Part shown: one piece after another, positions 1 through 64,000 of the stretch
Numbering within the stretch: position 1 is the first letter of the stretch
Layout: every line of letters starts with the position of its first letter
From: a virus
Taxonomy: Duplodnaviria > Caudoviricetes
Length of the DNA stretch: 64,000 bases
Reading direction: 5' to 3' (one strand)
Virus record (IMG/VR): IMGVR_UViG_3300044878_000205
Location: 1 to 64,000 of that record
Position numbers and translations under genes: made by a program
The notes under the pieces: model-generated
The model's database searches: none
The model's input: the letters and a program-made list of their open reading frames with translations, nothing else
What the model was told of the DNA's origin: nothing

Positions 1-185
1 TGCGTGGCGACCTCAAGGGCCGCTACGAATCCTACGGCAAGGGCATTCAGTGGGGGATTTTGAGCCCCAACGATTGCCGCGAACTGGAAGACCTCAACCC
101 CCGCGAGGGCGGCGATATCTACCTGACTCCGATGAACATGACCACCAAGCCCGAGGCCGGCGATGCAGACAAAACAAAGACGTGA
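1..185 (+). CDS. Portal protein, C-terminal fragment (copy 1)
   Basis: Nearly identical to 38116-38300, the end of the intact portal ORF. Confidence 0.93.
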   Translation, partial: RGDLKGRYESYGKGIQWGILSPNDCRELEDLNPREGGDIYLTPMNMTTKPEAGDADKTKT

Positions 186-822
186 TTTACCGCTGACGAT
201 CAAGTCGGTCAGCGAGACCGGCGAGTTCGAGGGCTATGGCTCGGTGTTCGGGGTCAAGGATTCGCATTCGGACATCATCGTGCCGGGCGCCTTCCTGAAG
301 TCCCTGGCGCGCTGGAAAGAAAAGGGCCGCCTGCCGGCGATGCTCTGGCAGCACCAGATGTCCGAGCCCATCGGCGTCTACACCGAGATGCGCGAGGACG
401 ATGTCGGGCTGTTCGTCAAGGGCCGCCTGTTAATCGAGGCCGATCCGCTGGCCAAGCGCGCGCATGCGCACATGAAGGCCGGCAGCCTGACCGGGTTATC
501 CATTGGCTTCACGCTTGATGACGATGGCTACGCATACGACACGGAAAAGGGCGCCTGGCTGCTCAGCGGGATCGACCTGTGGGAAGTGTCTCCTGTGACG
601 TTCCCGTCCAACGATGAGGCGCGTATCGCCGACGTGAAATCCCAGCTTCAGCGCGGCGAAACACCGCCGCCGAGCAAGATCGAGAAAGCCCTGCGTGAGG
701 TGGGGTTCTCGGGCTCACAGGCCAAGGCCTTTATGGCCAAAGGCTACAGCGCCATAGGCCCGCGAGAGGCGGGTCTGGATCAAGCGCTGGAATCAGTTAA
801 ATCCCTTATTTCCCGAATCTGA
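163..822 (+). CDS. HK97-family prohead protease (copy 1)
   Basis: FEGYGSVF, LWQH, GLSIGF and LWEVSPVTFPSN motifs; lies between portal and capsid. Confidence 0.95.
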   Translation: MQTKQRRDLPLTIKSVSETGEFEGYGSVFGVKDSHSDIIVPGAFLKSLARWKEKGRLPAMLWQHQMSEPIGVYTEMREDDVGLFVKGRLLIEADPLAKRAHAHMKAGSLTGLSIGFTLDDDGYAYDTEKGAWLLSGIDLWEVSPVTFPSNDEARIADVKSQLQRGETPPPSKIEKALREVGFSGSQAKAFMAKGYSAIGPREAGLDQALESVKSLISRI

Positions 823-833
823 AGGAGCCTCTC

Positions 834-2039
834 ATGGCTGTTGAATTAAAAGATGTGCAGGACGTTGCCGAGGCGCTCGGCAAGAAGTTTGACGAGTTTG
901 CGAAAAAGAACGACCAGCGCGTCGACGCCCTGGAATCGGAAAAGGGCAAGCTCTCCGGCCAGGTTGAAACCCTCAACGCGAAACTGTCCGAGCTGGACGA
1001 ACTGAAGTCCAACCTGGAGAAGGAGCTGCTGGAGATCAAGCGCCCAGGTGGCGGTGGCAACACCAAGGCGGTGACTGAGCACAAGGCAGCGTTCCTGTCG
1101 TTTGTGCGCAAGGGCAAGGAAGACGGCTTGGCCGAACTGCAACAAAAAGCCTTGCAGACCACCGTCGAGTCGGACGGCGGTTACGCGGTGCCGGAAGAGC
1201 TGGACCGCACCATTCTGGAGCTGCTGCGCGACGAGTCGCCGATGCGCCAGATCTGCGGGCAGATGACCATCGGCACCGCGGACTACAAGAAGTTGGTCAA
1301 CACCGGCGGCGCGGGCTCCGGCTGGGTCGGTGAAACCGACGACCGCCCGGAGACCGGCACCCCCTCCCTGAAGCAGATCGCCGCGGTGATGGGCGAGATT
1401 TATGCCAACCCGCAGGCGACCCAGACCAGCCTGGACGATATGTTCTTCAACGCCGAAGCCTGGCTCAACGCCGAGGTGGCCCGCGAGTTCGCCGAACGCG
1501 AAGGCTCGGCGTTCCTGTTGGGTGACGGCACCAACAAACCCAAGGGCCTGCTGGCCTATGCCATGGCCTTGACCGGTGACAAGACCCGCGCCTTTGGCGT
1601 GCTGCAGAACATCAAGTCGGGCACCGCCGGCGACTTCGATGCCGATGATCTGGTGAAGATGGTGTACAGCCTGAAGAAGGGCTACCGCGCCAATGCATCG
1701 TGGATGCTGCCGACCATGACCCTGTTCAAGGTGCGCACCTTCAAGGATGCCGTGACCGGCGCGTACATCTGGCAGCCGGGCCTGCAGGCGGGCCAGCCGT
1801 CGAGCCTGTTGGGCTATGGCGTAGCGGAAAACGAAGACATGCCGGCGGTGGCTGCGGACGCGAATGCGGTGGCGTTTGGCGACTACAAGCGTGCCTACAC
1901 CATCGTCGACCGCCTCGGCACCCGCGTGCTGCGCGACCCGTACACCAACAAGCCGAATGTCGGCTTCTACACCACCAAGCGCGTCGGCGGCATGCTCACC
2001 GATTCCAACGCGGTCAAGGTGCTGACCCTCAGCGCGTAA
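834..2039 (+). CDS. HK97-family major capsid protein (copy 1)
   Basis: Coiled-coil delta domain, DGGYAVPEE, GDGTNKPKG and FGDYKRAYTIVDR motifs. Confidence 0.96.
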   Translation: MAVELKDVQDVAEALGKKFDEFAKKNDQRVDALESEKGKLSGQVETLNAKLSELDELKSNLEKELLEIKRPGGGGNTKAVTEHKAAFLSFVRKGKEDGLAELQQKALQTTVESDGGYAVPEELDRTILELLRDESPMRQICGQMTIGTADYKKLVNTGGAGSGWVGETDDRPETGTPSLKQIAAVMGEIYANPQATQTSLDDMFFNAEAWLNAEVAREFAEREGSAFLLGDGTNKPKGLLAYAMALTGDKTRAFGVLQNIKSGTAGDFDADDLVKMVYSLKKGYRANASWMLPTMTLFKVRTFKDAVTGAYIWQPGLQAGQPSSLLGYGVAENEDMPAVAADANAVAFGDYKRAYTIVDRLGTRVLRDPYTNKPNVGFYTTKRVGGMLTDSNAVKVLTLSA

Positions 2040-2087
2040 CCGCCCAGGGCACCCTGCGGGGTGCCCTGACTTCGAGGAGGTAGGGTT

Positions 2088-2459
2088 ATGCCAAGAATTC
2101 TAGTCACCGCGGCCTTCAAGTTCGCGGTCGATGGTCTGCATGTGATCGAGGTCGAGCCTGGCGAGCAGGACGTGTCCGAGCGCTGCGCCGACGTGGCGGT
2201 GGACCACCTCAAGGTGGCGAGCCGTTTGGAGGGCGCTGCGCCCGTGGTGTCGGCCAGTCCGCTGTTCGTTGGGCCTGTCGTGACGACCAAGCCGCCGCTG
2301 GTGGCGGCCGTGGTACCGGTTGTCACGCAAACTCCGCCTGTGGCGCCTCCAGCGCCCGTCAAGCCGGTGAGCCAAGCCAAGCCTGCGGCCAAGCCGAAGA
2401 CCGCTGCCAAAGCCAAGCCAAGCGCCAAAGCCACGGCTAAGCCCGGGGGCGCGGCATGA
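2088..2459 (+). CDS. Small post-capsid protein with P/A/K-rich tail (copy 1)
   Basis: GAGG RBS; N-terminus shared with 40203..40442. Confidence 0.75.
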   Translation: MPRILVTAAFKFAVDGLHVIEVEPGEQDVSERCADVAVDHLKVASRLEGAAPVVSASPLFVGPVVTTKPPLVAAVVPVVTQTPPVAPPAPVKPVSQAKPAAKPKTAAKAKPSAKATAKPGGAA

Positions 2460-2770
2460 TCGATCTGGCCAAGGTGAAGTTGCACCTGCGGGTGGATGTG
2501 GCGGATGAAGATGAGTTGCTGCAGGACTACCTCGACGCGGCGATCAGTGCGTTCGAGACCTGGTGCAACCGCACTCTGGTCGCGGCTGGCGCGCCGTTGC
2601 CGGAGCCGCTGGGCAATGCCCTGGTGCTGAGCAAGGGCATTGCCCAGGGCGCGCTGCTGCTGATCGGTCATTGGTACGCCAATCGCGAGTCCTCGGTGGC
2701 CGGGGTGGCGTCTGAGCTGCCGCTGTCCACCCAGGCGCTGTGGCGTCCGCACCGTTGGATGAACATCTGA
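2456..2770 (+). CDS. Head-tail connector (HK97 gp6-like)
   Basis: VKLHLRVD and LLLIGHWYANRE motifs. Confidence 0.9.
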   Translation: MIDLAKVKLHLRVDVADEDELLQDYLDAAISAFETWCNRTLVAAGAPLPEPLGNALVLSKGIAQGALLLIGHWYANRESSVAGVASELPLSTQALWRPHRWMNI

Positions 2771-2782
2771 TAAGGAGAGGCC

Positions 2783-3190
2783 ATGGCCTATCGAGAACCG
2801 GCGGCCGGCGATCTGAATCGGCGGGTTGCCATCCGCCTGCGCACGGATATCCCGGCCGACGACATGGGCGTGTCGTCGGAGTTTTCCGAGATCAAACCGC
2901 GCTGGGCCAAGATTGAACCGGTCGGTACCGGCGTGTATTCCGCCGGGGTGCAGACCGGCAACAAGGTCACCCACCGGATCTGGATCAGATCGCTACCGGG
3001 TGTCACCGAGGCGCATGAAGTGGTGCATGTCACGCACCTGCCGGGTGAGCCGGTGTACTCGGTGGTCGAGGGTGCGCCGATCTACCGGATCAAGCGCAAT
3101 GCCGACCTCAACGGTGGCCGGCGTTTCACCCTGCTCGAGGTCGAGGAGTTGGGTGCCGATCAAGCGGGGTTAAACATCTATGGCGAGTAG
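2783..3190 (+). CDS. Head-tail adaptor / head closure protein
   Basis: AGDLNRRV...WAKIEP...THRIWIR pattern and synteny. Confidence 0.85.
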   Translation: MAYREPAAGDLNRRVAIRLRTDIPADDMGVSSEFSEIKPRWAKIEPVGTGVYSAGVQTGNKVTHRIWIRSLPGVTEAHEVVHVTHLPGEPVYSVVEGAPIYRIKRNADLNGGRRFTLLEVEELGADQAGLNIYGE

Positions 3191-3698
3191 TCCGGCGGCA
3201 TACCTGCACTTCGGCGAGTTTGACTCTTACGGCAAGCTCGACTTTGACAAAAAAGCCATCCGCAAGGGCATGCGCCTGGTCGGTGCCCTGGTGCGCCGTG
3301 AAGCCCGCGCCCTGGTCAACAAGCAGTCGCCTTCGGCGGGTGGTGAGTACCCCTCGCGCGCCGAGGGGCTGTTGTACCGCTCGATCCGCGCCAAGGTCAG
3401 TCGCCCGGGTTTTTTGGTGAAAATCGCCCCGCAAAAGATCGCCGGCATGAAGGACTTCTACCCGGCGTACCTGCATTACGGGGTCAAGCAGGGCGGGCGT
3501 CTGAAGGCGGTCCCACAAATCGCCATTGGCAAGAAGAGCCGCCGCAAGAAGGGCGAACGCGCCGCCGCCCTGGCTGCGCGCGCCGCCGGGGCCTGGAAGC
3601 TGGAGCCGCGCAAGAACTTCATGGCCGATGCCCTGGAGAGCAGCACTGACCGGGTCCAGCAGATCCTCCGGCAAGCGTTCGCCGACTCGCTGAAGTAA
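3180..3698 (+). CDS. Neck/tail completion protein (HK97 gp10-like)
   Basis: Basic protein with G.LYRSI, YLHYG and PRKNFM motifs; synteny. Confidence 0.7.
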   Translation: MASSPAAYLHFGEFDSYGKLDFDKKAIRKGMRLVGALVRREARALVNKQSPSAGGEYPSRAEGLLYRSIRAKVSRPGFLVKIAPQKIAGMKDFYPAYLHYGVKQGGRLKAVPQIAIGKKSRRKKGERAAALAARAAGAWKLEPRKNFMADALESSTDRVQQILRQAFADSLK

Positions 3699-3717
3699 GC
3701 GGTGTAGGTGTGTGGTG

Positions 3718-3740
3718 CCCGCTTCGGCGGGTTTTTTTTC
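3718..3740 (+). terminator. Intrinsic terminator inside late operon
   Basis: CCCGC-TTCG-GCGGG followed by a T run; conserved at ~41701-41722. Confidence 0.8.
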
Positions 3741-3755
3741 GCCTGGACATAACCG

Positions 3756-4364
3756 ATGAAAATTACCCCTGTCGTGGCGCACCTGCGCCAGTACTGCCCG
3801 AGCTTCCAAGACCGTGTGGTCGGCGGCATTGATTTCGAGGCGGTGGCCAACAGCATCAAGCTGAGCCGGCCATCGGCCTATGTGATTGCCACCGGCGACT
3901 TGGCCAGCAAAAACGCCAACCAGAACGCGGTGCAGCAAAACATCCGCGATGACTTTGACGTGGTCCTGGTGCTCGACACCCAGGACGAGCGCGGCCAGGA
4001 AGCGGTCGACCTGCTGCACGACCTGCGCGCCGAGTTGTGGCGCGCCCTGGTCGGCTGGAAGCTCGGCCCGGCTTACGACCCTATCGAATACGCCGGCGGC
4101 GAAGCGGTGGCGATCAACCGCGCGCGGGTGCTCTACCGCTTCAGCTTCACCGCCGAGTTCCAGCTGGGCCGCAACCGGCAAAGTGAGCCGGCCGAGACCT
4201 GGGTCGAGCATGAATTGGACGGCCTGCCGCCGTTGGTGGGGCTTGACGTTCGCGTGGACTTTATCGACCCGGCGGACCCCAACCTGCAGCGCCCTGGCCC
4301 GGATGGCCGGGTCGAGGCGACTTTCTCCGTTGAACTACCGCAACCCACTGAGGACTCTCCATGA
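3756..4364 (+). CDS. Tail terminator-like protein
   Basis: Position before DUF2635-like gene and sheath in Mu/SfV-type tails. Confidence 0.65.
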   Translation: MKITPVVAHLRQYCPSFQDRVVGGIDFEAVANSIKLSRPSAYVIATGDLASKNANQNAVQQNIRDDFDVVLVLDTQDERGQEAVDLLHDLRAELWRALVGWKLGPAYDPIEYAGGEAVAINRARVLYRFSFTAEFQLGRNRQSEPAETWVEHELDGLPPLVGLDVRVDFIDPADPNLQRPGPDGRVEATFSVELPQPTEDSP

Positions 4365-4570
4365 GCCGCATGACTGTGTACCCGGCCGCGGGCCGGGTAG
4401 TGCCCGACCCTGAAACCGGCGGCGACTTGCCCGCGGAGGGACGTGACGTCCCGCGTGACGCGTACTGGCTGCGCCGCTTGCGTGATCAGGACGTCACCCC
4501 CGACGCGCCGAAGCCGGCCAAGGCCGCCACTAAAACCCCGGCTTCGGCCATCCCTGGGAGCGCTGAATAA
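4361..4570 (+). CDS. DUF2635-like small tail protein
   Basis: VPDPETGGDLPAEG...YWLRRL..D motif directly before the sheath gene. Confidence 0.8.
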   Translation: MSRMTVYPAAGRVVPDPETGGDLPAEGRDVPRDAYWLRRLRDQDVTPDAPKPAKAATKTPASAIPGSAE

Positions 4571-6054
4571 TGGCGATCAGCTTTAACTCCATCCCGAGCG
4601 ACCTGCGCGTGCCGCTGTTCTACGCTGAGGTCGACAATTCGCAGGCCAGCAGCGCCGCCTCGAGCATGCCGCGGCTGCTCGTGGCGCAGGTCAACGACGA
4701 TGCCACCGCGGCCGAGATCGGCCAGCTGACCCTGGTGTCGAGCCTGGGCCTGGCCAAGAGCATCGGTGGCGTCGGCTCGATGCTCGCGCAGATGTACGAC
4801 ACCTGGCGCCGTAACGATCCGGCCGGTGAGGTCTGGTGCCTGCCGATCAAGGCCACCGGCAGCAAGGCGTCCGGCACCGTCACCGTCACCGGCACGGCCA
4901 CCGAGGGCGGCGAGCTGAACCTGTACCTGGGGGCCAGCCGTGTGCGGGCGACCGTGGTCAAGGGGGCCACCCCGACCGCGGTGGCCAGCGCCTTGGCGGC
5001 CGCGGTGAATGCCGCCGGCTTGGGGGTAACCGCGGTGGCGGCGGTGGGGGTGGTGACCCTGACCTGCACATGGTCCGGCCTCAGCGGTAACGACCTGCTG
5101 CTGCAACTCAATCGCCAGGGCCGCAACAATGGCGAAGCGACCCCGGAAGGTCTGACCGTGGTCCTGACGCCGATGAGCGGCGGTGTGGGCACGCCGGACG
5201 TGGCGCTGGCCTTGGCCAGCCTCGGTGATGAGCCGTTCGAGTTCATCTGTGCACCGTGGGCCGATGCCACGTCGTTGGATGCCTGGAAAGCCTTTATGGA
5301 CGATTCCAGCGGGCGCTGGAGCTGGGCTAAACAGCTTTACGGGCATGTCTACACCGCCGTGCGCGGCACGCTCGGCAGCCTGGTGGCGTTGAGCGCGACG
5401 CGCAATGATCAGCACGCGACGATTCATGGCTTTGAGTCGACCTGCCCTGATCCAGTGTGGAACGTGGCGGCCGCCTATGCGGCGCGCACCGCGGTGTTTA
5501 TTTCGGCAGACCCGGCGCGGCCAACCCAGACCGGCGAGCTCAGCGGCCTGACCCCGGCCCCGGCCGGTGATCGCTTCACCCTGACCGAGCGCCAGTCGTT
5601 GTTGAGCCGCGGCATTGCCACGGCCTACTTCGGCGGCGGCGCGCAGCGCATCGAACGGGCGATCACCAGCTACCAGTTCAACGCCTATGACCAGCCGGAC
5701 GACTCCTACCTGGACAGCGAAACGCTGCACCAGTCGGCCTTTGTCATCGGCTACCTGAAGGCGCGGGTGACCAGCAAATACGGCCGGCACAAGCTGGCCA
5801 ATGACGGCACGCGTTTCGGCGCCGGCCAGGCCATCGTCACGCCGAACGTGATTCGCGCGGAAATGATCGCCGGCTACTACGCGCTGGAGCAGCTGGGCAT
5901 TGTCGAAAACGCCGAGGCCTTCGCGGCCAATCTGATCGTGGAACGATCGAGCACCAACCCCAATCGGCTGAACGTGCTGTACCCGCCGGACCTGGTCAAT
6001 CAGCTGCGGATCTTCGCGCTGCAATACCAGTTCCGCCTGCAGTACGCCGTCTGA
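4570..6054 (+). CDS. Mu-like contractile tail sheath (copy 1)
   Basis: ISFNSIPSDLRVPLFYAEVDNS start, DPARP and PDLVNQLRIFA motifs. Confidence 0.95.
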   Translation: MAISFNSIPSDLRVPLFYAEVDNSQASSAASSMPRLLVAQVNDDATAAEIGQLTLVSSLGLAKSIGGVGSMLAQMYDTWRRNDPAGEVWCLPIKATGSKASGTVTVTGTATEGGELNLYLGASRVRATVVKGATPTAVASALAAAVNAAGLGVTAVAAVGVVTLTCTWSGLSGNDLLLQLNRQGRNNGEATPEGLTVVLTPMSGGVGTPDVALALASLGDEPFEFICAPWADATSLDAWKAFMDDSSGRWSWAKQLYGHVYTAVRGTLGSLVALSATRNDQHATIHGFESTCPDPVWNVAAAYAARTAVFISADPARPTQTGELSGLTPAPAGDRFTLTERQSLLSRGIATAYFGGGAQRIERAITSYQFNAYDQPDDSYLDSETLHQSAFVIGYLKARVTSKYGRHKLANDGTRFGAGQAIVTPNVIRAEMIAGYYALEQLGIVENAEAFAANLIVERSSTNPNRLNVLYPPDLVNQLRIFALQYQFRLQYAV

Positions 6055-6109
6055 CGTTAACGTCCGTTCATAGCCCGCCGCGTGCGGGCTTTTTTGTAGG
6101 AGAAAGGCC

Positions 6110-6457
6110 ATGGGCCAGAAAGTTGCGGGCACCGTCTACATCAAGGCAGACGGCGTTCAGTTCACCGTCACCGGCGGTGTGGAAGTGCCGCTGAGTGACG
6201 TCAAGCGCGAGTCGGTGGCACCCGGCTTTTTCAAGGAAGAGGACCTGGTGGCGTATGTGAAGGCCACCGTGGTGGACTCGCCGGATCTGCCGATCAAGCA
6301 AATCATGGCGGCCACCGATCAGACGGTCACCGTCGAGTTCAAGAACGGCCGGGTGTACGTGCTGGCCGGCGCGTATGTGGTCGACGAGCCAAGCGCCAAG
6401 GGCGATGACGGCACCATCGACATTCAGTGGGATGGCAGCAAGGGGGGCTTCCAATGA
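6110..6457 (+). CDS. Mu-like tail tube
   Basis: 115 aa, AGTVYIKADG start, follows sheath. Confidence 0.9.
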   Translation: MGQKVAGTVYIKADGVQFTVTGGVEVPLSDVKRESVAPGFFKEEDLVAYVKATVVDSPDLPIKQIMAATDQTVTVEFKNGRVYVLAGAYVVDEPSAKGDDGTIDIQWDGSKGGFQ

Positions 6458-6765
6458 GTCAAGTGACGACCTACAAACTGGCCGCGCCGATTCAGGCGCA
6501 TGACCAGGAAGTGCTGGAGCTGACCCTGCGTCGGCCGACGGTGGCCGAGGTCCGTGGCATCAAGGCGCTGCCGTACAAGATCGACAAAAACGAGGACGTC
6601 TCGCTCGACCTGGACGTGGCGGCCAAATACATCGCCATCTGCGCGGCGATTCCGGCGCCGTCGGTCAACCAACTGGACCTGTCGGACTTGAACAACCTGG
6701 CGTGGGCCGTTTCGGGTTTTTTCATGACTGCGGCATCGGCGAAGCCGGAGACGTCGGCGGGCTGA
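6454..6765 (+). CDS. Tail assembly chaperone (short form)
   Basis: ATG overlaps tube stop; LTLRRPT motif; precedes tape measure. Confidence 0.85.
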   Translation: MSQVTTYKLAAPIQAHDQEVLELTLRRPTVAEVRGIKALPYKIDKNEDVSLDLDVAAKYIAICAAIPAPSVNQLDLSDLNNLAWAVSGFFMTAASAKPETSAG

Positions 6766-6893
6766 TTGCCGTGGCCTATGACCTGGCTTTTTTCTGGAAA
6801 GTCGGACCCGAACAGATGATGGCGCTGCCGCTGGATACGTTCGCCGAATCGCTGGCGAACGCCCAGCGCATAAATCAAGTTCAGCAGGGGTAG
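6714..6893 (+). CDS. -1 frameshift extension of tail assembly chaperone
   Basis: G GGT TTT slippery heptamer at 6714-6720 in frame; -1 frame stays open to 6893; conserved in copy 2. Confidence 0.8.
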   Translation, partial: GFFHDCGIGEAGDVGGLIAVAYDLAFFWKVGPEQMMALPLDTFAESLANAQRINQVQQG

Positions 6894-6896
6894 GGT

Positions 6897-10072: not shown

Positions 10073-10074
10073 CC

Positions 10075-11684: not shown

Positions 11685-12067
11685 CCCGTGAGGAGTTGTT
11701 GCGCCGCGCGGTGACCATCAGCCTGTTCACCTGGCGCCGCGCCGGGCCGGATGACGTGGTGGACGACAGCGACCTCAAAGGCTGGTGGGGCGACTGCGTG
11801 CCGTCGGTGGCCGGTGACAAGATCGGCTCGCGGCTGTGGTTGTTGGCGCGGCGCACGCTGGTCGCGCAGACGCTGCAGGACGCCCAGGCTTACGCCGAAG
11901 AGGCGCTGGCCTGGCTACTCGAGGACGCGATTGTCACGGCCGTGGCGGTCGCGGTCGAGCGCCAGGGCAATGACCGGCTGAACCTGCGGGTGACGCTGAC
12001 CGAGGCCAGCGGCGAAACGCTGGCACTGAATTTTGCAGACACCTGGGAGCTGATCAATGGCGTATGA
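11681..12067 (+). CDS. Mu gp46-like baseplate protein
   Basis: ISLFT, GWWGD, GSRLWLL and AEEALAWL motifs. Confidence 0.9.
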   Translation: MTREELLRRAVTISLFTWRRAGPDDVVDDSDLKGWWGDCVPSVAGDKIGSRLWLLARRTLVAQTLQDAQAYAEEALAWLLEDAIVTAVAVAVERQGNDRLNLRVTLTEASGETLALNFADTWELINGV

Positions 12068-52504: not shown

Positions 52505-52568
52505 CCGTTAAAAACATAAGTTTTACACAACCCGCTTCGGCGGTTTTTTTTCGCCTGGAGAAAAGTTA

Positions 52569-54947: not shown

Positions 54948-55034
54948 CGGGGCTCCCTCCTCCTGTTGTTTTGGGAGGGTGGGGCTGGATCAAAACTTAA
55001 AATTTACCGTTCGTAAACGGTAGGGGCTCTTTTA

Positions 55035-55289
55035 ATGGCACTTAAAAAAAACCTTGAATTCCGTGGCATCTTGGTTCCGGATGCCTACATCAAGATTGCA
55101 ACCACCACGATCATCGCCGGCAATGAGTGGATTGACTTCTGCGTGCATTACCTGGCCACGGATACTGGATCACCCTTTAACAGCGTGAACGTGCAGTGCG
55201 CCTACAATCTGCTGGGCGACAATCCCATCAAGCAGGGCTATGAGCACCTGAAGACGCTTCCTGAGTTCGAGGGCTGCACCGACTGCTGA
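55035..55289 (+). CDS. Small tailspike-associated protein
   Basis: MAL.K...DAYIKI...NPIKQGYEHLKTLPEF...DC pattern typical of genes after tail fibres; copy-2-specific. Confidence 0.65.
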   Translation: MALKKNLEFRGILVPDAYIKIATTTIIAGNEWIDFCVHYLATDTGSPFNSVNVQCAYNLLGDNPIKQGYEHLKTLPEFEGCTDC

Positions 55290-55344
55290 CAGTTAGTCGG
55301 CAGAACGCCGTGGATGTGGAGCCCGAAGGCTCCATTTTGACTTG

Positions 55345-56379: not shown

Positions 56380-56686
56380 TATTTTGGTCTCGGTTAGGGA
56401 AGGGGAGTTGCGATGAGTGCTGCGCTAGCGCTAATTGTGGCTGGCCAGAAACTGGCTACGATGATCGCGACTGACAACCCAGTATTTTATGAGCGGACAG
56501 CGATGCGTCACGCCACCCAGTATCAATCCGCTGATAAGTTTATCTATCTGTTATTCATCTAGAGCGTCATTAGTCAGACGGTTTTTAACAGTTGTGATGT
56601 TTTATGCTCGTCATGCAGCAGCCGTTACTGCATATCCCCTCGAATGCCCGCCCAGTCGCGGGCTTTTTTACGCCTGGAGAAAGGTT

Positions 56687-57112
56687 ATGAACGCAACCGA
56701 GAAAGACCGCGACATCCTCGCCCGCACCTTGTGGGGCGAGGCCCGCGGCGAGAGTCAGGCCGGCATGGAGGCGTGCGCCTGGACCATCCGTAATCGGGTG
56801 TTCGACGGCCGGGCTAAGTCCTGGTGGGGCGAAGGCTATGCCGGGGTGTGCCAGAAGGCCTGGCAGTTCAGCTGCTGGAACGCCAATGATCGCAACTCGC
56901 CGTACCTCAAAGGCGCCAAGCCGATTCCCGCCGGCGAATACAAGCAGGCGCTGGCGGTGGCCACCGCGGTGATGAGCGGGGCGGTGCCCGATCCCACCGG
57001 CGGCGCCACCCACTACTACGCGAGCAGCATGCCCAAGGCCCCGGCCTGGGTGAAGGGCGCCACGCTGACGCTCAAGCTCGGCGGGCACCTGTTCTATAAG
57101 GATGTGCCGTGA
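56687..57112 (+). CDS. SleB-family endolysin (copy 2)
   Basis: Homologue of 18056..18481. Confidence 0.92.
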   Translation: MNATEKDRDILARTLWGEARGESQAGMEACAWTIRNRVFDGRAKSWWGEGYAGVCQKAWQFSCWNANDRNSPYLKGAKPIPAGEYKQALAVATAVMSGAVPDPTGGATHYYASSMPKAPAWVKGATLTLKLGGHLFYKDVP

Positions 57113-57630
57113 GCCCCGCGGCGTGGAAGCTGACGGTGCTCGGGGTGGTGCTCCTGGTGCTGCTCAGCGCGGCCGGTGTGTGGCAGGTCCAGGACTGGCG
57201 CTATGGTCAGCAGCTGGCCCAGCAGGCCACGGCCCATCAAGCCGATCTGACCGTCCTGGGCAATGCCGCGGCGGCCCAGCTGCAGACCGATCAAGCCCGG
57301 CGCCTGGCCCTCGAGCAGCGCTTGGCCACCCTCGATCAATCCCACCACAAGGAACTGTCCGATGCGCACACCCTGCAGGCTCGCCTGCGTGACCGCCTGG
57401 CTACTGCTGATCTGCGGCTGTCAGTCCTCCTCGCCACGCCTGCAGCCGGTGGCGACCCAGTGCCCGCCACCCCCGGCACCGGCGGCGTGGTTCATGGAGG
57501 CGCGCGCGGCGAACTTGACCGAGCGGCTGCTCAACGAATTGTCGCCATCACCGGCGCCGGCGATGACGGACTGATTGCCCTGGCGGCCTGTCAGGCCTAT
57601 GTGCGTGAGATCACGGCGCGGCCCCCATAG
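57109..57630 (+). CDS. i-spanin (copy 2)
   Basis: Homologue of 18478..19047. Confidence 0.88.
   Translation: MSPAAWKLTVLGVVLLVLLSAAGVWQVQDWRYGQQLAQQATAHQADLTVLGNAAAAQLQTDQARRLALEQRLATLDQSHHKELSDAHTLQARLRDRLATADLRLSVLLATPAAGGDPVPATPGTGGVVHGGARGELDRAAAQRIVAITGAGDDGLIALAACQAYVREITARPP
57362..57574 (+). CDS. Embedded o-spanin (copy 2)
   Basis: LICGC lipobox-like motif and CPPPPAP. Confidence 0.82.
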   Translation: MRTPCRLACVTAWLLLICGCQSSSPRLQPVATQCPPPPAPAAWFMEARAANLTERLLNELSPSPAPAMTD

Positions 57631-57868
57631 GCACGGGCGCCGCGGCCCCGGCCACGCTGGGGGCGAACGAAACGTTTTGATTTGCGGACGGGTTGGCGAC
57701 TACTATCGGTGGGCGCCGGGTGGGACGATGGTGTCTTTTGGAGCGTTGCGCTCCGGTCCCGCGGAAAAATATTAAACAGTATTGATGTTAAATACACGGC
57801 GCCTTTGCTATGCTTTTGCCGTCTGGCACGAAAGCCAGGGAAGAATTAGAACTAAAATAAGGGCTTAG

Positions 57869-57946
57869 AAAAAAGAAAACCCCAGGCCGGCAAGCCTAGG
57901 GTTTTCGGTGATCGATCCGCAAAACAAACTCCGGAAGACCCTCGCA
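57869..57946 (-). ncRNA. Predicted copy-control antisense RNA (copy 2)
   Basis: Minus-strand TTGCAC-N17-TAAACT and the same terminator hairpin. Confidence 0.7.
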
Positions 57947-58002
57947 GGTCGGAGTTTAGTGGACGGTCCCCTTCTGTGCAAGCCCGTTGCTGGGGAGCAA
58001 CC

Positions 58003-58101
58003 ATGCTGCATTTCGACCGTTTGCCGCGGCTACATCCGCGGTCCGTCCGCACCACCCGCACCCTTGCCGCCGCTGTCGGCGTCGTAAGGGGCTCGCTATG
58101 A
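58003..58101 (+). CDS. Rep leader peptide (32 aa, copy 2)
   Basis: MLHFDRLPRLHPRSVRTTRTLAAAVGVVRGSL; ATGA overlap with rep. Confidence 0.75.
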   Translation: MLHFDRLPRLHPRSVRTTRTLAAAVGVVRGSL

Positions 58102-58991
58102 GCCTGCGTGTGGTCAAGTCGTTTCTCCCGGCGGGCTCGCCGGCCAGCGCGGTGTATGCCGCCCTCGATGCCGCCCTCGATGCGCCTGCCGCCGCCCCGC
58201 AACAGCCCCCCTTTAAGAAAGTCCTGCCGCCGGTCGGCCATATGGCCGTGCGTCGTCCGCGCCGTTTGTCGGCCAAGCAGGCGTCGACCTTCCTCGGTGA
58301 AGCGGTCAAGCGCATCAAGGCCGAGGCCAGCGACCGCACCGGTAAATACCTGCGCTGCCTGGACACCGTGCACCAAGCCGGCGGCCGCACCCGCGCCGAG
58401 CGCTGGCAGGCCCTGGCAGCGATTGCCGAGCCGCTGTTGGCCCGTCTGGACATTGCCACCGGCTGCCTGGGCTACCTGGACCAACACGGCCAGTTCCGCC
58501 TCAACCGGCAGAACGGCTTGGCCGAGGATGCCGGCATCAGCCCGACCCGCCTGTGCCGGCTGCTGAAGGCCCTGGAGAAAGCCAAGTACACCCTGCGCAA
58601 GATCAAGCGCCTGTATCGCAACGGTAAGCGCTGGGTCTGCCGCATCACCATCTATGTGCGCCCGCGCTTCTTTATCGACCTCGGCCTGGGCTTCCTGCAC
58701 GCCGCCTCGCGCACCGCCAAGGCCAAGGCCTACCTGAAGAAGCGCCGCCAGGCGCAGGCCGTGCAGCAGCAAGCGCTGCTCGATGACGTGGCCGCCGCGC
58801 ATGACCGGCGCATGAGCCACCGCAACGCCGAGGCCGCCCGCGCCGAGACGCGCAAGGCCGCCGAGAACACCTCGCGCATCCAAGCGCTGCAGCACAAGGC
58901 CGGTGTCCTCTCGGACCTGGCCAAAGCCCACCCGGGCAAGGGCCATGCCGAGTTGATGGCCCTCTACCACCAGCTCCACCCCGCCTCCTGA
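58098..58991 (+). CDS. RepA-like initiator (copy 2)
   Basis: Homologue of 19456..20349. Confidence 0.7.
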   Translation: MSLRVVKSFLPAGSPASAVYAALDAALDAPAAAPQQPPFKKVLPPVGHMAVRRPRRLSAKQASTFLGEAVKRIKAEASDRTGKYLRCLDTVHQAGGRTRAERWQALAAIAEPLLARLDIATGCLGYLDQHGQFRLNRQNGLAEDAGISPTRLCRLLKALEKAKYTLRKIKRLYRNGKRWVCRITIYVRPRFFIDLGLGFLHAASRTAKAKAYLKKRRQAQAVQQQALLDDVAAAHDRRMSHRNAEAARAETRKAAENTSRIQALQHKAGVLSDLAKAHPGKGHAELMALYHQLHPAS

Positions 58992-59844
58992 GCCCCGCTC
59001 AACCCGCCCCGCTACCGGCGGTGCGTTCGCGTGTCCGCTCGTCTGTCAGCCCCGCACAACCCCCTGTCCTACGCCGTTTACGGTCCCCGCCACGCCAGTT
59101 TTCTCACGCCAATTCCCCTGCAGCCCCGTCCTTTTCCCGCGCGCCCGTCCAGGCCCCTAAAGCCTTTGGAATAACTGCAATTTTAGAGGTCGAGTGGTAC
59201 CACCCAAGGGTTAGAAACAGAGCCTTTCGGTTCAGTGGAGTGCTCTAGATCGGGACCTGACTCGATGCCATAGAAAGAATGCCTGCCCACTTCGCGCCTG
59301 GAGGCGCGGGGCAAGGGCACCCCTCGGCGTCGGTGCCGCCGCCGTTCCGTCAGTGAGGCGCCCTCCAGTTGCTGTGGGCCGGTCGGCGAGCGATTCCGAC
59401 CGCCACACCGCGTGCCGTCCCTTCGCGCCTTCACGCGCCGCCTGCGGCCAGTCAGTCGCGCAAGCGCTCCAGTGATCAATGAGCGGGGTGGGCTTGCCGA
59501 TTTTTCCCAGCCTGAAGCGCCGCGTGGCCTGTTCGGGCGTCGTCGGGTCTTCAGGTAAGGCGTGGCGTCAGGTAAGGCGGCGCGTGGTGCAGGCGCGCTG
59601 TGGTGGGCTCGGGCGTCAGGGCTGGTGCGCGCTCGGCCGGCGCGAAGGGACGGCGGGCGGTGGCGGTGGTCGCTGGATCTGCCGCCCGTGGCGAAATGTC
59701 TGAAAGCCTTGCGCGGCATGGCTTGCCGACCGTTTTTAACGTGAGAAGTTTCATAGGCGAATTAGCGAATTAGCTATTGAGATAAGCCGGTCGCTATGTA
59801 AAATGCCTCGTCCCCGGGCATTCCTGCCTGGCCCAGATGGAGCT

Positions 59845-60078
59845 GTGCCGTTGAGTTGCCAAGCCTTACACACCCAAATGAAGGAACATGCCCGGTGTCT
59901 GTCCCTGCCTCAAGTGGTCCGGTCGATTGAGAACCTGGGCGGCGGGAACTTGCCGGCGATTGAGCTGATCTTGCGCAGCCTGCTGCTCGATGTGTACGCC
60001 GAGCGTCAGGGCCTCGAGGCCGCCCGGCGGCTGATGGCGCAGGTGGGCATTGCCCAGCCGGGCGTGTTGCTGGCATAA
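59845..60078 (+). CDS. Conserved hypothetical protein (copy 2)
   Basis: Homologue of 21176..21409. Confidence 0.7.
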   Translation: MPLSCQALHTQMKEHARCLSLPQVVRSIENLGGGNLPAIELILRSLLLDVYAERQGLEAARRLMAQVGIAQPGVLLA

Positions 60079-60117
60079 CCTGAACTCCTCCCGGTGCGAC
60101 TGAAAGGAACCCCCGCC

Positions 60118-60342
60118 ATGCCGATGATCGACAGTGACACTTTCAAAGCCGAACTGGATGCCGCGAACGCTGCCCGCGAAGCGCTGGTAGACCATCAGAT
60201 TTTGCCGAAGCCGTATGATCGTGAGTGGCATCAAGCCGAAGGCGTGCGTCTGCTGGAGGCCTATCAGGCCGCCACCAATACGCTGGCCCATCAAATGAAA
60301 AGAGTGGTCGAGCTGGCCGAGACCGTGGCCCTGATTGGGTAG
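60118..60342 (+). CDS. Cassette-like ORF A (74 aa)
   Basis: Starts in the shared 19-nt leader. Confidence 0.72.
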   Translation: MPMIDSDTFKAELDAANAAREALVDHQILPKPYDREWHQAEGVRLLEAYQAATNTLAHQMKRVVELAETVALIG

Positions 60343-60384
60343 GCCCGTCGCGTTACCCCTAACGAACTGAAAGGAACCCCCGCC

Positions 60385-60633
60385 ATGTTCGACGAGTCCC
60401 CGCCGCTCACCGATGCCCAGGTCGCGGCCTTGGCCAAGCCCGGCGAAAGCTGGGCGGCCGCCCGCGACCGCGCCGCGCGCTTGTACCGCTGCGTGGTCGA
60501 GTGCTGGCCGTGCCCCGTCTGCAACGCCGGCGGCGTGCAGCCGTATGGCGGCTGGATTGAGGATGAGTTCAACGGCTGCGGCACTTGCGCCGCGATGTGG
60601 CGACATTTGCCCAAGCGCCCGAATAGTTTTTGA
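60385..60633 (+). CDS. Cassette-like ORF B (82 aa, two CxxC motifs)
   Basis: Starts in the shared 19-nt leader. Confidence 0.72.
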   Translation: MFDESPPLTDAQVAALAKPGESWAAARDRAARLYRCVVECWPCPVCNAGGVQPYGGWIEDEFNGCGTCAAMWRHLPKRPNSF

Positions 60634-60652
60634 CGAGAAAGGAACCCCCGCC

Positions 60653-60904
60653 ATGGAAAAAATAGTCCCGATTGACATTGATGAAAGTTGCGTCGAGCTG
60701 GTGCAGCGCTTCCAGGCCCTCGACCGCCAGGTCAACGACATGATCTTTGGCCCGCCGGGCTACGATCATGCGGTTGTGGAGGCGTTGCAGACTGAGCGCG
60801 CCAATGTCAGCAACCTGGCCATGTTTCACCTCGGCGTGGCGTTCCGGACGTGTGGCTATTTCGATGGACCGGGCGAAGCCGCCTCGAGGGAAATCGAAGA
60901 GTAG
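60653..60904 (+). CDS. Cassette-like ORF C (83 aa)
   Basis: Starts in the shared 19-nt leader; ends 5 bp before the dif-like site. Confidence 0.72.
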   Translation: MEKIVPIDIDESCVELVQRFQALDRQVNDMIFGPPGYDHAVVEALQTERANVSNLAMFHLGVAFRTCGYFDGPGEAASREIEE

Positions 60905-60909
60905 GCCGC

Positions 60910-60937
60910 GTTACCCATAACGCCGTTTATGTGAAAT
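60910..60937. other. dif-like XerC/XerD recombination site 2
   Basis: GTTACCCATAA-CGCCGT-TTATGTGAAAT; XerC-type CATAA inner end, XerD arm 10/11. Confidence 0.75.
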
Positions 60938-61072
60938 CGGCCCCCCCCTTTCGACCAAAGGTGGGGGCCTTTTTTTGTGCTCGCCGTTACCAGAATGCTA
61001 TAAAATGGACTACCGTTTTATAGTGTTCTGGTTTTACGCAGAGCCCGCCACTCACTCGAAAGGAAACCGCCC

Positions 61073-61366
61073 GTGCCCTGTTACACGCTCTACGACGAAG
61101 ACCGAAACCCGCGAGGCCATCTGTGTGGCGACCTGGGCGCGCATTGCGGTGAGTGCGGTGACCTCGGCACGAACCTGTGCGATTACCCGGTGGGTCAAGG
61201 CAAGACCTGCGACCGCCTGCTGTGCGATTACCACGCCCAACTGATCGCGCCGAACCTGCATTACTGCAGCCCGCATGCAGTCGAGTGGCGCGCGTTTCGC
61301 GATGCCGGCGGCGTGCGCCAGGAGCTGGAGAACGTGATTGCCTTTAAGGAGGAAAAGAAGAAATGA
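61073..61366 (+). CDS. Cys/His-rich putative Zn-binding protein, copy-2-specific
   Basis: CGEC...LCDY...TCD..LC..H...YC..H; AAAGGA RBS. Confidence 0.75.
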   Translation: MPCYTLYDEDRNPRGHLCGDLGAHCGECGDLGTNLCDYPVGQGKTCDRLLCDYHAQLIAPNLHYCSPHAVEWRAFRDAGGVRQELENVIAFKEEKKK

Positions 61367-61569
61367 ACAACCGTCACGGCCTGGACGTGGACCGGTTCCG
61401 CCGCAAGGTGCTGCGCCTGGCGCGTGACCTGGAGCAGTCCACCCCGGTCGAATTCGCCCGGGCTTGTGCACGTCTGTCGCGTGCGGCTGACGCGGCGCTG
61501 TCGGCTCAGGCAGAGTACGCCCGCCCAGGGCCGGCCCTCGACGATTTAGACCTGCAGGAGGAGCGCTAA
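61363..61569 (+). CDS. Conserved small protein (copy 2)
   Basis: Homologue of 23263..23469. Confidence 0.75.
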   Translation: MNNRHGLDVDRFRRKVLRLARDLEQSTPVEFARACARLSRAADAALSAQAEYARPGPALDDLDLQEER

Positions 61570-61967
61570 TGCCCCGTTATTGGATTCGCTACACCGTGAC
61601 CAACGCGCGCCGCAGCTCGGAGCACACGCGCACCCTCGACACCGAGTTTCCGCTGGAATACGACAGCGATATCGCGGCGCTGCAAAAGACCTTGGAGGCC
61701 GCCCGCGGCCCCGGCAGCACCGTGACCCTGACCACCTGGCGCGAACTCAAGGGCGAGTCGCGCTACGTCGATCCGTGGTCGACCCTCAGCAACCCCTTGG
61801 CCAATCCGCAACAGCCGGTGGGCTGGCTGTACACCCTGCACCTGGATGACGCGCGCACCGTCACCCGCTTCAGCTGGACCCCGGAGAACCCGTTCGGTGA
61901 GCTCGACGCCGGCCAGGCACTGACGGTGTCGCGGCTGCGGCTGGACCTGGACGAGGCGGCGCCGTGA
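61569..61967 (+). CDS. Conserved hypothetical protein (copy 2)
   Basis: Homologue of 23469..23867. Confidence 0.75.
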   Translation: MPRYWIRYTVTNARRSSEHTRTLDTEFPLEYDSDIAALQKTLEAARGPGSTVTLTTWRELKGESRYVDPWSTLSNPLANPQQPVGWLYTLHLDDARTVTRFSWTPENPFGELDAGQALTVSRLRLDLDEAAP

Positions 61968-62065
61968 GACATGCGCAAACCATCCCCCTCGGTGGGGCAG
62001 TTGGCCGCGCCGCGCCGCTGTGGCAAGGTGCGTGCCAGTCTCACGGATTTGAAACGAGGGTATGC

Positions 62066-62317
62066 ATGATTGGGAAGTCACTGGATGAGGACGCATTGCG
62101 CCTGCTGCTGAGCCAGAACGCGGTGCGCGAGTGCAAGGTGGCCCGGCAAAAGCAGGCGCCGCAGCGCTGGACCCTGGAGGTGCGCCTGGGCGGATCGCAG
62201 GCGCGCTGGATACCGCTGCGCTCACGCCGTGAGCCGGTGCGCACCTGGGCCAGCCTGGACACCCTGGAGCGCTTCACCAATAGCGTGGGGATTCTGGCGT
62301 TTCTCGTGGAGTCGTGA
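62066..62317 (+). CDS. Small conserved protein (copy 2)
   Basis: Homologue of 24020..24271. Confidence 0.6.
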   Translation: MIGKSLDEDALRLLLSQNAVRECKVARQKQAPQRWTLEVRLGGSQARWIPLRSRREPVRTWASLDTLERFTNSVGILAFLVES

Positions 62318-62381
62318 CCGGTCACACGCGCACAAAAAAGCCCCGAACCAGTCGGGGCTTTTTGTTGCTGGAGGAAAGGTC

Positions 62382-62525
62382 CTAGCGGTTCCAGCGCGCC
62401 AGGGCCAAGGCTTGTTTGGTCTTGGGTGAGCAGGTGGCGAGGAAGTAGGCCATCTGCCGCGCGGAAATCTGCAGCAGTTCGTTCAGCGGTTTAGCGCGCA
62501 GGGTGATATATTCGTGCTCTGACAT
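62382..62525 (-). CDS. 47-aa microprotein (copy 2)
   Basis: Homologue of 24336..24479. Confidence 0.65.
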   Translation of the reverse strand: MSEHEYITLRAKPLNELLQISARQMAYFLATCSPKTKQALALARWNR

Positions 62526-62600
62526 GTCGTGTACCTTTTGCGGGGTTTCGGTGTGTTATGAGCGTCCAGGTCTTCGACCACCTGGACGCTCGCTCCCTTC

Positions 62601-62894
62601 TCAGTTGCTGGGTTCCCAGCCTTTCTTTTTCATGTAATCGGCCATCGCTTCTTTCAGCGCATCCACTTGCGCAATGTCGTTGCTCGCACAAAAGGTGCGG
62701 AAGTTGCGGCGGTATTCGTGCGCGACCTTGAAGCCCAGGTCGACCAGTTTGTTATCGGCCGGCACCTTGGTGTTGTTGCCGACGCTGGCCGTTTCGGCGG
62801 CAGACTGGGGCGGCTCGCCCAACGTGCTGCGGCGGGGTGGCTTGGCCACTTTGACGGCGGGGGTTTCGGGGGTCTTGGCGGTCTTGGTCGGCAT
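62601..62894 (-). CDS. RHH partition partner (copy 2)
   Basis: Homologue of 24555..24851. Confidence 0.75.
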   Translation of the reverse strand: MPTKTAKTPETPAVKVAKPPRRSTLGEPPQSAAETASVGNNTKVPADNKLVDLGFKVAHEYRRNFRTFCASNDIAQVDALKEAMADYMKKKGWEPSN

Positions 62895-62972
62895 GGCGGT
62901 GATCCTGTGGGTAGTGGTTGGAGCTTAGCAGGCATTGCGCTAATTAGCGAATTCGCTAATTAGCTGTTGAGG

Positions 62973-63626
62973 TCAGGCCGCGGTCAGCCGCTCGAAGTGG
63001 TCGACGGCGGACTGGATGACTTCCAGGGCCTTGGCGCGCGGCCCCTTGTACGGGGTTTCGATAATCGAACGGCCTTCGTTCATGGCGTTGGCATAGGCGT
63101 CCTGGTGCTGGATCGCGCCGTCGAGCACGGCAAAGCGGGTCTTGCCCAGGTATTCACGTGCCGCGTCAATCGGCGCCTTGCGCGCGGTGGCCTTGCACAA
63201 GGCGTAGACGATGCGCTCCACCGGAATGCCGTGTTGATCGACCAGGCTGTTGGCCAGGGCGACCTGGGGTTCGAGGTCATCCAGGGTCAAGCCGGTAGGC
63301 AGAATCAGCAGCTGACAGGCTTTGGCGATCCGCACGGTTTCTTCGGTGGCGTTGGCCGGGCCATCGAAAATGAACAGGTCGGCATCCCCCGCGCGGCTGA
63401 GGGCGGTGGCGACGTTGCCATACAGTTGCACGGGCACATCGGGGGTGATGTTGGCGAACAGCCGGCGGCGTTGCCAGTTGGTGGCGGTGGCTTGTTTGGT
63501 GTCGAGGTCGATGATCTTCACCGCCCAGCTGGCCTGGGTGTACGCGGTGGCGAGGGCGCGGGCGAGGGTCGATTTCCACGCGCCGCCTTTCTGAGAAATG
63601 CAGCCAATGCCGTAGGGGTTTTGCAT
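62973..63626 (-). CDS. parA: ParA ATPase (copy 2)
   Basis: Homologue of 24930..25583; flanked by the same 8-bp arrays (62939-62965, 63645-63740). Confidence 0.9.
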   Translation of the reverse strand: MQNPYGIGCISQKGGAWKSTLARALATAYTQASWAVKIIDLDTKQATATNWQRRRLFANITPDVPVQLYGNVATALSRAGDADLFIFDGPANATEETVRIAKACQLLILPTGLTLDDLEPQVALANSLVDQHGIPVERIVYALCKATARKAPIDAAREYLGKTRFAVLDGAIQHQDAYANAMNEGRSIIETPYKGPRAKALEVIQSAVDHFERLTAA

Positions 63627-63791
63627 GCGGGGTTTCCTTCTGGTCGAATTAGCGAATTCGCTAAGGTCGTGCCCAGTATAGGCGCCGCGGAAAAAGGTGC
63701 ATAGCTAATTTGCGAATTAGCTAATGGGCTAATTCGCAAATCTTGGGCAGGGGGGGGGCGAGAGCGGCTGGCGGTGACGGCGGGGGCTGCG

Positions 63792-64000
63792 TTACTGCGG
63801 GCTGGCGATAGCCATCTGTCCGGTCAGGTCGGACAGATGATCGGAGCTTTCCAACAACTGCGCGGCCAGTTCTGCGATGCGTTCCAGGGCATTTAGATCT
63901 CCTTCATTAATGGCCACCGTGGCGATTGCCCGAATGCCGGCGAGGCCCGCGCTGTTGCGGGTCAGGCGGGTAAACAGGTAGCGCTGGGTGTCTTCGGTGA
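63792..64000 (-). CDS. Conserved hypothetical protein, truncated by window edge
   Basis: Homologue of 25737..25988. Confidence 0.65.
   Translation of the reverse strand, partial: TEDTQRYLFTRLTRNSAGLAGIRAIATVAINEGDLNALERIAELAAQLLESSDHLSDLTGQMAIASPQ

Follow-up and report, generated by a model that had tools for sequence, protein, structure and literature searches.

The 38-kb periodicity of this viral sequence is real, but the head-to-tail linkage of its units most likely arose through an error of short-read assembly and is not a natural array: two co-occurring sibling circular phage-plasmids, here called A and B, were very probably concatenated by the assembler. The window (the whole 64,000-nt stretch analysed) is part of a 76,588-bp contig that ends in a 71-nt repeat of its start (position 1). 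The corresponding circle of 76,517 bp consists of exactly two units, 38,115 bp (A) and 38,402 bp (B), placed as follows:

1..38115, + strand: unit A, complete circular phage-plasmid genome, permuted within the portal gene; 1-127 recurs exactly at 38116-38242
38116..64000, + strand: first 25.9 kb of unit B (full unit, contig 38116-76517)

Gene order recurs at an offset of 38.0-38.7 kb, and the long collinear blocks of A and B share 83-92% nucleotide identity, with a peak of 92-94% at 33-37 kb; the tailspike, the O-acyltransferase and small-gene cassettes are swapped between them. A partner in the other unit was found for 65,612 of the 76,588 contig bases, the gaps being phage cassettes, and a Pfam scan together with the A/B pairing revealed no host gene on the whole contig. 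The preliminary description had recognised the ~38-kb period, the divergence of the copies with swapped genes, the lack of host DNA between them, and in each unit virion and lysis genes, a Rep-like gene, a par pair (ParA plus a ribbon-helix-helix, RHH, protein) and an Xer-like site, all of which were borne out. The stacked array that it proposed is refuted by the contig itself, which is circular and holds two units. Inspected past the window's edge for more units and host junctions, the contig contains only the remainder of unit B (64,001-76,588) and the 71-nt repeat; the further unit supposed to start after 60909 wraps round into what had been called unit A.

The join and both contig ends fall within a single stretch of the portal gene, one of three exact A/B repeats that form crossing nodes at k=127:

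38069..38242, + strand: 174-nt portal-gene stretch, identical in A and B; A-to-B join and both contig ends
33513..33731, + strand: exact A/B repeat, 219 nt, partner at contig 71733; second k=127 crossing node
34567..34694, + strand: exact A/B repeat, 128 nt, partner at contig 72787; third k=127 crossing node

Because the join and both ends lie in the shared 174-nt stretch, either half forms a circle by itself with the portal gene kept in frame, and the 71-nt terminal repeat is no proof of a single circle. At k=127 there are three out-branching vertices, one of them at position 1; at k=55, 77 or 99 no branch vertex lies there. A contig start on a branch vertex would be expected of short-read assembly under an artefact or a heterodimer model alike. 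Taken by itself, unit A carries a terminal repeat of 127 nt, equal in length to that of a monomer relative, G001 (37,011 bp), and a terminal repeat as long as the k-mer is a known assembly signature, as part of the CheckV paper describes (PMC8116208). The concatenated IMG/VR viral contigs treated in the same part (PMC8116208) resemble A plus B in being about twice the family genome length and in having a k-mer-tied terminal repeat, but each of them contains one genome over again. The present contig instead links two distinct genomes of 83-92% identity (k=21 frequency 1.08), at an exact repeat longer than k and with the contig end on a graph vertex.

The assembler was presumably a k=127 de Bruijn graph program, which would have taken a wrong turn at the shared portal node and produced a 76.5-kb figure-eight path. 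As no read or contig across the 174-nt join was seen among the listed pieces of run X1, we only infer this turn. Against mis-assembly count the contig's terminal overlap, which is 71 nt and not 127 nt, and the fact that a 174-nt repeat is normally resolved by read pairs. An exact search of viral and metagenome contigs with the shared 40-mer gave 0 matches (the window's own records were possibly left out). Relatives gave no phase signal at the join, since on either side of it five close ones mix letters of A with letters of B, and identity in the genes downstream is only 73-80%. Mis-assembly is nevertheless favoured, given the depth step at the portal, the location of the join and both ends at one node, and the k=127 start vertex. 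The preliminary description had named mis-assembly of two replicons as an objection to its own proposal; that reading is now rated likelier than the heterodimeric cointegrate, which keeps a small probability. When diverged sibling phages are concatenated, the product is taken for a 'complete' circular genome and slips through filters based on k-mer frequency, as A plus B likely would, and a viral record about twice its family's size calls for a check at shared exact repeats.

Read depth was taken from run X1, the only run with both units and possibly the source sample, in which 26 of 26 checked 'other letters' were B alleles. Values came from k-mer contigs and from a displayed subset of the data, 40 out of 1,415 rows of variants and 24 out of 822 pieces across three runs, and past 42.4 kb the B depth is that of B-allele rows read on A's coordinates. 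Runs X2 and X3, with relatives only (mostly 90-99% alike), were left out; 21 other listed runs had small shares. A was deeper than B both in the medians (36.8 versus 24.4, 15 values each, Mann-Whitney p=0.0003) and in 9 of the 10 pairs of places compared, where the A/B ratio had a median of 1.45; one homologous place read 43.6 for A and 21.7-22.8 for B. Across the portal region the depth steps from ~36 (22.3-38.0 kb) to ~22 (39.1-40.3 kb).

These data bear on a real heterodimer, in which A and B would have co-infected one cell and undergone one homologous crossover in the packaging region (portal/methylase repeat), leaving a 76.5-kb circle and excess free A. The assembler did go from A to B at the node, the A/B identity maximum lies at 33-37 kb, and in the terminase-portal region the B-allele depths (30.8, 32.3 and 42.3) approach those of A (33.6-36.8). 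However, near-equal depth was found only at 35.5-37.7 kb, the A/B ratio is ~1.5 over 22-33 kb and 39-40 kb, equal copy number does not hold overall, and the contig ends at the same node as the join. We regard such a heterodimer as unlikely. If true, it would give a rare view of module exchange among such phages. Unequal A and B depth is still compatible with dimers mixed with free A.

Pfam and PHROGs identified a complete virion, packaging, lysis and repressor gene set, with the following virion, lysis and packaging genes in the window:

163..4364, + strand: A head genes, prohead protease, HK97-type capsid, connector, head completion, tail terminator (Pfam)
4361..14516, + strand: A Mu-like contractile tail, sheath, tube, tape measure, DNA circularisation, gp44-48, baseplate J, fibre (Pfam)
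14594..16393, + strand: A tailspike, predicted beta-helix, body unlike B's
16548..17693, + strand: A O-acyltransferase moron (PF01757), low GC
18056..19047, + strand: A endolysin (Hydrolase_2) and Rz-like spanin
32772..38300, + strand: holin, HNH nuclease, N6/N4 methylase, TerS, TerL, portal (portal spans the join)
38278..52504, + strand: B head and contractile tail genes, collinear with A
52569..54947, + strand: B tailspike-like protein, 792 aa
55345..56379, - strand: B O-acyltransferase moron (PF01757), on the opposite strand to A's and 19.5% identical to it

Maintenance and lysogeny genes were annotated alongside these:

19456..20349, + strand: A putative replication initiator (Rep), predicted winged helix, 93% identical to B's
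58098..58991, + strand: B putative replication initiator
24555..25583, - strand: A partition pair, ParA (24930-25583) and RHH protein (24555-24851) (Pfam/PHROGs)
62601..63626, - strand: B partition pair, RHH protein and ParA (Pfam)
26070..26729, - strand: A CI-like repressor (HTH + S24), 97.7% identical to B's
30464..31801, + strand: A tyrosine recombinase (PF00589, above cutoff), in the rightward operon ahead of the holin

Rep had no Pfam, PHROG or PDB-sequence match; by fold, Foldseek returned no PDB match at E<=0.001 and one viral model at 1.2e-7. Structure comparison gave winged-helix matches only, and 10% of the Atlas neighbour cluster of Rep is IncFII_repA. ParA matched phrog_164 (E 1.7e-19), the B copy matched PF01656 above cutoff, and the adjoining RHH match was below cutoff; the two ParA proteins are 90% identical. 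A and B probably live on in Pseudomonas as plasmid prophages of low copy number, for which the putative winged-helix Rep would start replication, with ParA and the RHH protein predicted to partition the plasmid, and the CI-like repressor expected to hold lysogeny. Host XerCD would resolve dimers at a dif-like site, and induction would yield particles with a Mu-like contractile tail and an HK97-type head, into which DNA of unit length is packaged. The identities of CI (97.7%), Rep (93%) and ParA (90%) suggest that A and B are likely homoimmune and incompatible, and the differing tailspikes and O-acyltransferases that they likely use different receptors, which argues against a single molecule that holds both.

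The tyrosine recombinase found in each unit (that of B at contig 68569-69861, PF00589 above cutoff) was absent from the preliminary description. We considered it as an att integrase and set this assignment aside: in PseuP_224 its homolog lies between DnaB and Q, beside a separate integrase. A recombinase in each unit would fit a chromosomal polylysogen or tandem array with at least three units, as would distant Rep homologs on chromosomal contigs, Rep homologs being present in 32 plasmid records but in chromosomal prophages too. This arrangement is extremely unlikely in view of the PseuP_224 gene order, of the long contigs, on which Rep homologs have no ParA or dif-like site within 10 kb, and of the contig itself, two units that close on themselves with no host gene. 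As an array, the sequence would have no significance, being most likely an artefact.

Each unit carries one Xer/dif-like site:

22233..22260, + strand: unit A site, 28 nt (11+6+11), central hexamer CGGCGT
60910..60937, + strand: unit B site, 28 nt, central hexamer CGCCGT

The sites are direct repeats spaced 38,677 bp apart (2 observed versus 0 in 100 Markov resamples), and the structure of two 11-bp arms round a 6-bp centre is kept across relatives; dimer resolution is their likely role. The preliminary description took them as unit borders (unit B, 22233-60909), and a cointegrate made by Xer recombination would accord with one directly repeated site per unit and with the gene cassettes that change on both sides. 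This placement fails on X1 depth, which is flat across each site (A 43.6/43.5, B 22.8/22.3 on the two sides) and falls from ~36 to ~22 inside the proposed unit. Furthermore, the site occurs in 22 of the 29 related records examined, free circles included, where it lies mid-genome on the Rep side of ParA, and comparison of its flanks with relatives gave no phase signal. We therefore consider an Xer-made cointegrate highly unlikely; with the join inside the portal gene and depth unchanged at these sites, the units share no att-type border. The one-base difference between the two centres might hinder resolution, a point for the heterodimer. A natural 76.5-kb heterodimer of homoimmune, differently tailed phage-plasmids, formed by a portal-gene crossover and kept fused by the differing Xer hexamers, appears improbable; it would represent phage mosaic formation caught at an intermediate stage, with recombinant phages set free by unit-length packaging.

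By sequence comparison, A and B belong to a Pseudomonas phage-plasmid lineage that is akin to pPAC1.3b and pHN2 and, more remotely, to Vibrio LG49/TG34. The earlier term 'sibling phage-plasmids' is supported, as relatives with the A/B backbone are closed plasmids of cultured Pseudomonas and stand-alone 34-41-kb circles, G001, G009, G010, G013 and G014 being circles with terminal repeats. All 67 viral loci found with the Rep profile lie on records of <=41,352 bp, and none of the 7 ParA loci is on a record longer than 40,868 bp. The closed isolate plasmids pPAC1.3b (NZ_CP097559.1), pHN2 (NZ_CP085886.1) and pPL-38ph (NZ_CP062157.2) have a control backbone like that of A and B (CI 51-64%, recombinase 56-61%; in pPAC1.3b and pHN2 also ParA 60-81% and RHH 65-78%). 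Rep of pPAC1.3b is 50% identical, whereas pHN2 and pPL-38ph have no Rep match; a dif-like site of the A/B kind is present in the latter two. All three have a lambda-type terminase and P2-type tails, in contrast to the HK97-type head and Mu-like tail of A and B. A and B are new members of a lineage of 34-43-kb circular Pseudomonas phage-plasmids in which the repressor-recombinase-ParA-dif backbone stays constant and the virion and Rep modules can be exchanged. Literature searches of open-access full texts found no account of it as a group, and no phage or plasmid record covers 80% of positions 1-22,000.

The circular phage-plasmid LG49/TG34 of Vibrio crassostreae (phage K303) is, in the part of its report drawn on here, episomal at 3-10 copies and plaque-forming, and resembles A and B in its size of 36 kb, its HK97-type head, its leftward ParA and repressor genes, and an 'integrase' ahead of holin, HNH and TerS (PMC13230959). 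Its recombinase (39%), portal (37%), TerL (32%) and CI (31%) match those of A and B, but Rep, ParA, sheath and baseplate do not, there is no matching dif-like site, and the host differs; with 26-42% protein identity in 8 of 17 proteins, it falls outside their genus. P1, N15 and the F116 community, as partly covered in PMC7969092, likewise combine virion, lysis and lysogeny genes with partition and dimer resolution on one replicon. Among 73 proteins scanned, Pfam named no protelomerase (as in N15) or Cre (as in P1).

For a heterodimer, no diverged two-unit record was found among the relatives. The 74-84-kb portal-bearing records (3 among 80 portal matches) proved to be single-portal proviruses, and pHN2, the one two-copy plasmid examined, has copies 99.97% identical and was rejected as a precedent. 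[quoted passage not shown] The relevant part of PMC3091646 offers it as a precedent, two phage genomes on one extrachromosomal circle. Also in favour of a heterodimer, two distant family members seem, from their locus tags, to share one P. putida isolate, as separate contigs of 37,174 and 38,325 bp.

The preliminary description had read the window as an array of stacked phages. The window comprises the initial 64,000 bases of a 76,588-bp virus record (the contig), and self-comparison confirmed the ~38-kb gene-order period as collinear repeats at an offset of 38.0–38.7 kb, with 83–92% identity in long collinear blocks. The 12.6 kb past the window is homologous to 25.9–38.2 kb, and the final 71 nt of the contig copy its initial 71 nt; this makes the record a circle of 76,517 bp made up of two units and no more, A (1–38115) and B (38116–76517). 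The periodicity is thus real, but the contig holds two units with overlapping ends: the further unit expected after unit B is absent, since only 12.6 kb follow the window and end by repeating position 1. A Pfam scan of 73 contig proteins found no host gene, and an array is extremely improbable. In total, 65,612 of the 76,588 contig bases are paired with the other unit, and the nine unpaired gaps >150 nt contain tailspike/acyltransferase cassettes and small genes. Each unit carries the following features.

Gene and site content of each unit (protein classes from Pfam and PHROGs, except Rep)
Packaging and head: HNH nuclease, methylase, TerS, TerL, portal, S78 protease, HK97-type capsid
Tail: Mu-like contractile tail and tailspike
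Moron and lysis: O-acyltransferase, endolysin, spanin, holin
Rep-like protein: 297 aa
Xer-like (dif-like) site: 28 nt; 22233–22260 (A), 60910–60937 (B)
Partition pair: RHH and ParA, leftward
Other control genes: CI-like repressor, C5 methylase, tyrosine recombinase

Protein identity between A and B is 97.7% for CI, 93% for Rep, 90% for ParA, 87% for the recombinase, 100% for TerS and 87% for the capsid. The tailspikes share only 33% identity and the acyltransferases 19.5%, and the acyltransferase genes lie on opposite strands in the two units. Tailspike and O-acyltransferase are swapped jointly as one low-GC cassette (14594–17693; 52569–56379), which suggests a receptor-binding plus receptor-masking pair. 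The tail-fibre genes of both units contain 84-nt tandem repeat units, ~81% identical (13962–14179; 51950–52194). A gene for a 66-aa membrane protein lies between TerL and portal in unit B (contig 75294–75494) and is missing from unit A; Vibrio phage K303 has a small gene in the same position. Because the named close Rep homologs come from Pseudomonas, this genus is the likely host of both units.

The A-to-B join is, in our assessment, most probably an assembly chimera. Only three exact A/B repeats of at least 127 nt exist, of 219 nt (33513), 128 nt (34567) and 174 nt (38069–38242), and the last, inside the portal gene (the portal node), contains the join and both contig ends, so that self-closure of B would account equally well for the 71-nt terminal repeat. 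Unit A closes on itself through a 127-nt repeat, and the portal gene stays in frame in either self-closure. When the circle is drawn as a de Bruijn graph with k=127, only three vertices branch outward and position 1 is among them; with k=55, 77 or 99 no branching occurs there. This proves that the record came out of a short-read graph, but does not prove that a wrong turn was taken. Among complete relatives the closest is G001, a monomer of 37,011 bp whose terminal repeat measures 127 nt; it matches 27,775 bases of unit A at ~80%. The CheckV paper treats terminal repeats equal to assembler k-mers, and contigs made over-long by concatenation, as probably artefactual (PMC8116208). We infer that the record was assembled by metaSPAdes, for which the relevant part of the published account gives path extension from an edge start, with coverage as a possible fallback if read pairs are undecided (PMC5411777).

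Sequencing run X1 contains 88% of sampled words from 32000–41500 and may be the source sample. Over 22500–42400 it yields long pieces without any difference from one or other unit, and its "other letters" were B alleles in 26/26 checked. Median depth per contig was 36.8 for A versus 24.4 for B (15 values each, p=0.0003; unchanged with six excluded rows, not assignable to a unit, restored; p=0.001 without two then-unverified B rows), drawn from 40 of 1,415 variant rows and the pieces listed (24 of 822). A exceeded B in depth at nine of ten paired places (median ratio 1.45; sign test p=0.02). A piece whose 43 A/B differences are exactly those predicted for A 1713–2191 had a depth of 43.6, compared with 22.8 and 21.7 for the adjacent B pieces. 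This imbalance counts against a real heterodimer formed by homologous crossover, although dimers mixed with free A would likewise yield unequal depth, and at 35.5–37.7 kb B-allele depth (30.8–42.3) is close to that of A (33.6–36.8), which speaks against a chimera; we regard the heterodimer as unlikely. Depth was equal left and right of the dif-like sites (A 43.6/43.5; B 22.8/22.3) and dropped from ~36 to ~22 between 37.7 and 39.1 kb, which places the unit boundary at the portal node, not at the dif-like sites proposed earlier as borders, and makes a cointegrate formed by Xer recombination very improbable. No piece spanning the node was among those listed.

Relatives are of single-unit size: the Rep profile detects 67 viral loci, none on a record longer than 41,352 bp, none of the 7 ParA loci is on a record longer than 40,868 bp, and 5 of 14 relatives with ends looked up (34.3–40.7 kb) have terminal repeats. 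Three of 80 portal matches fall on 74–84-kb records, all proviruses with a single portal each. The closed plasmids pPAC1.3b, pHN2 and pPL-38ph of cultured Pseudomonas share the control backbone of A and B but differ in virion genes. Plasmid pHN2 (NZ_CP085886.1; 81,985 bp) is one ~41.2-kb phage-plasmid twice over, the second copy shorter by about 500 bp, and represents either a homodimer or over-circularisation by the assembler; identity between its halves is 99.97%, a further point against a heterodimer. In species genomes, Rep and ParA co-occur on 30.6–40.5-kb contigs in four cases. Where a Rep homolog lies on a long chromosomal contig, neither ParA nor a dif-like site is present within 10 kb, so Rep by itself does not establish a plasmid. 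Of 29 related records chosen for carrying ParA or as plasmids of the A/B backbone, 22 have the dif-like site, against 0/100 resamples of the contig; in the central hexamer of the site the first two bases (CG) are invariant and the other four variable (L058, L003, L014, L063 and other relatives). Rep is unmatched in relatives L009–L012, L243 and L246, which keep repressor, recombinase, dif-like site and mostly ParA (~80%), and TerL is unmatched in G005–G008; replicon and virion modules thus appear swappable. Two divergent Rep homologs, P0023 and P0108, whose locus tags point to a single P. putida assembly, lie on contigs of 37,174 and 38,325 bp, and family members may share one cell as separate replicons.

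A possible heterodimeric element is reportedly known from Sodalis, going by a title only. Phage-plasmids that combine partition genes with dimer-resolving recombinases form a known class (PMC7969092), to which units A and B add two new members. K303 shares their layout, with 26–42% identity in 8 of 17 proteins; its supplement row gives 49 under the VIRIDIC heading, which we read as genus LG49, a circular Vibrio phage-plasmid that the relevant section reports as demonstrated episomal and plaque-forming (PMC13230959). Searches of open-access full texts yielded no account of the Pseudomonas lineage as a group; subscription papers and the supplements of PMC7969092 may list members.

Each unit would be a circular plasmid prophage, replicated by its putative winged-helix Rep (structure model pLDDT 80, generic winged-helix matches only; an Atlas neighbour with 10% IncFII_repA) and partitioned by ParA/RHH. 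The HNH nuclease and terminase type presumably indicate unit-length cos packaging, which would preclude packaging of a 76-kb molecule in one piece. Host XerCD acting at the dif-like site would keep each unit monomeric, by analogy with plasmid cer and psi sites (PMC5357621). Since repressor and replicon are near-identical and tailspikes differ, the sequences suggest two strains that occupied separate host cells within one sample and were joined in silico. What the data show directly are the gene content, the two units, the node and the depth.

A tyrosine recombinase, missing from the earlier gene inventory, is present in each unit (30464–31801 in the window). By inspection it keeps R, K, HxxR and Y, with Q in the second H/W position. 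Its family occurs in 36 plasmid records, 19 of them 36–43.4 kb, and in 165 phage records (147 Vibrio); 34 of the 36 plasmid records carry one copy and pHN2 two. In PseuP_224 the homolog is flanked by DnaB and Q and adjoins a separate integrase, so the gene is probably not an att integrase; resolvase and nin-region recombinase are both candidate roles. The Vibrio anguillarum plasmid NZ_CP034674.1 (56,630 bp) has three copies and may be a ~19-kb element in trimeric form.
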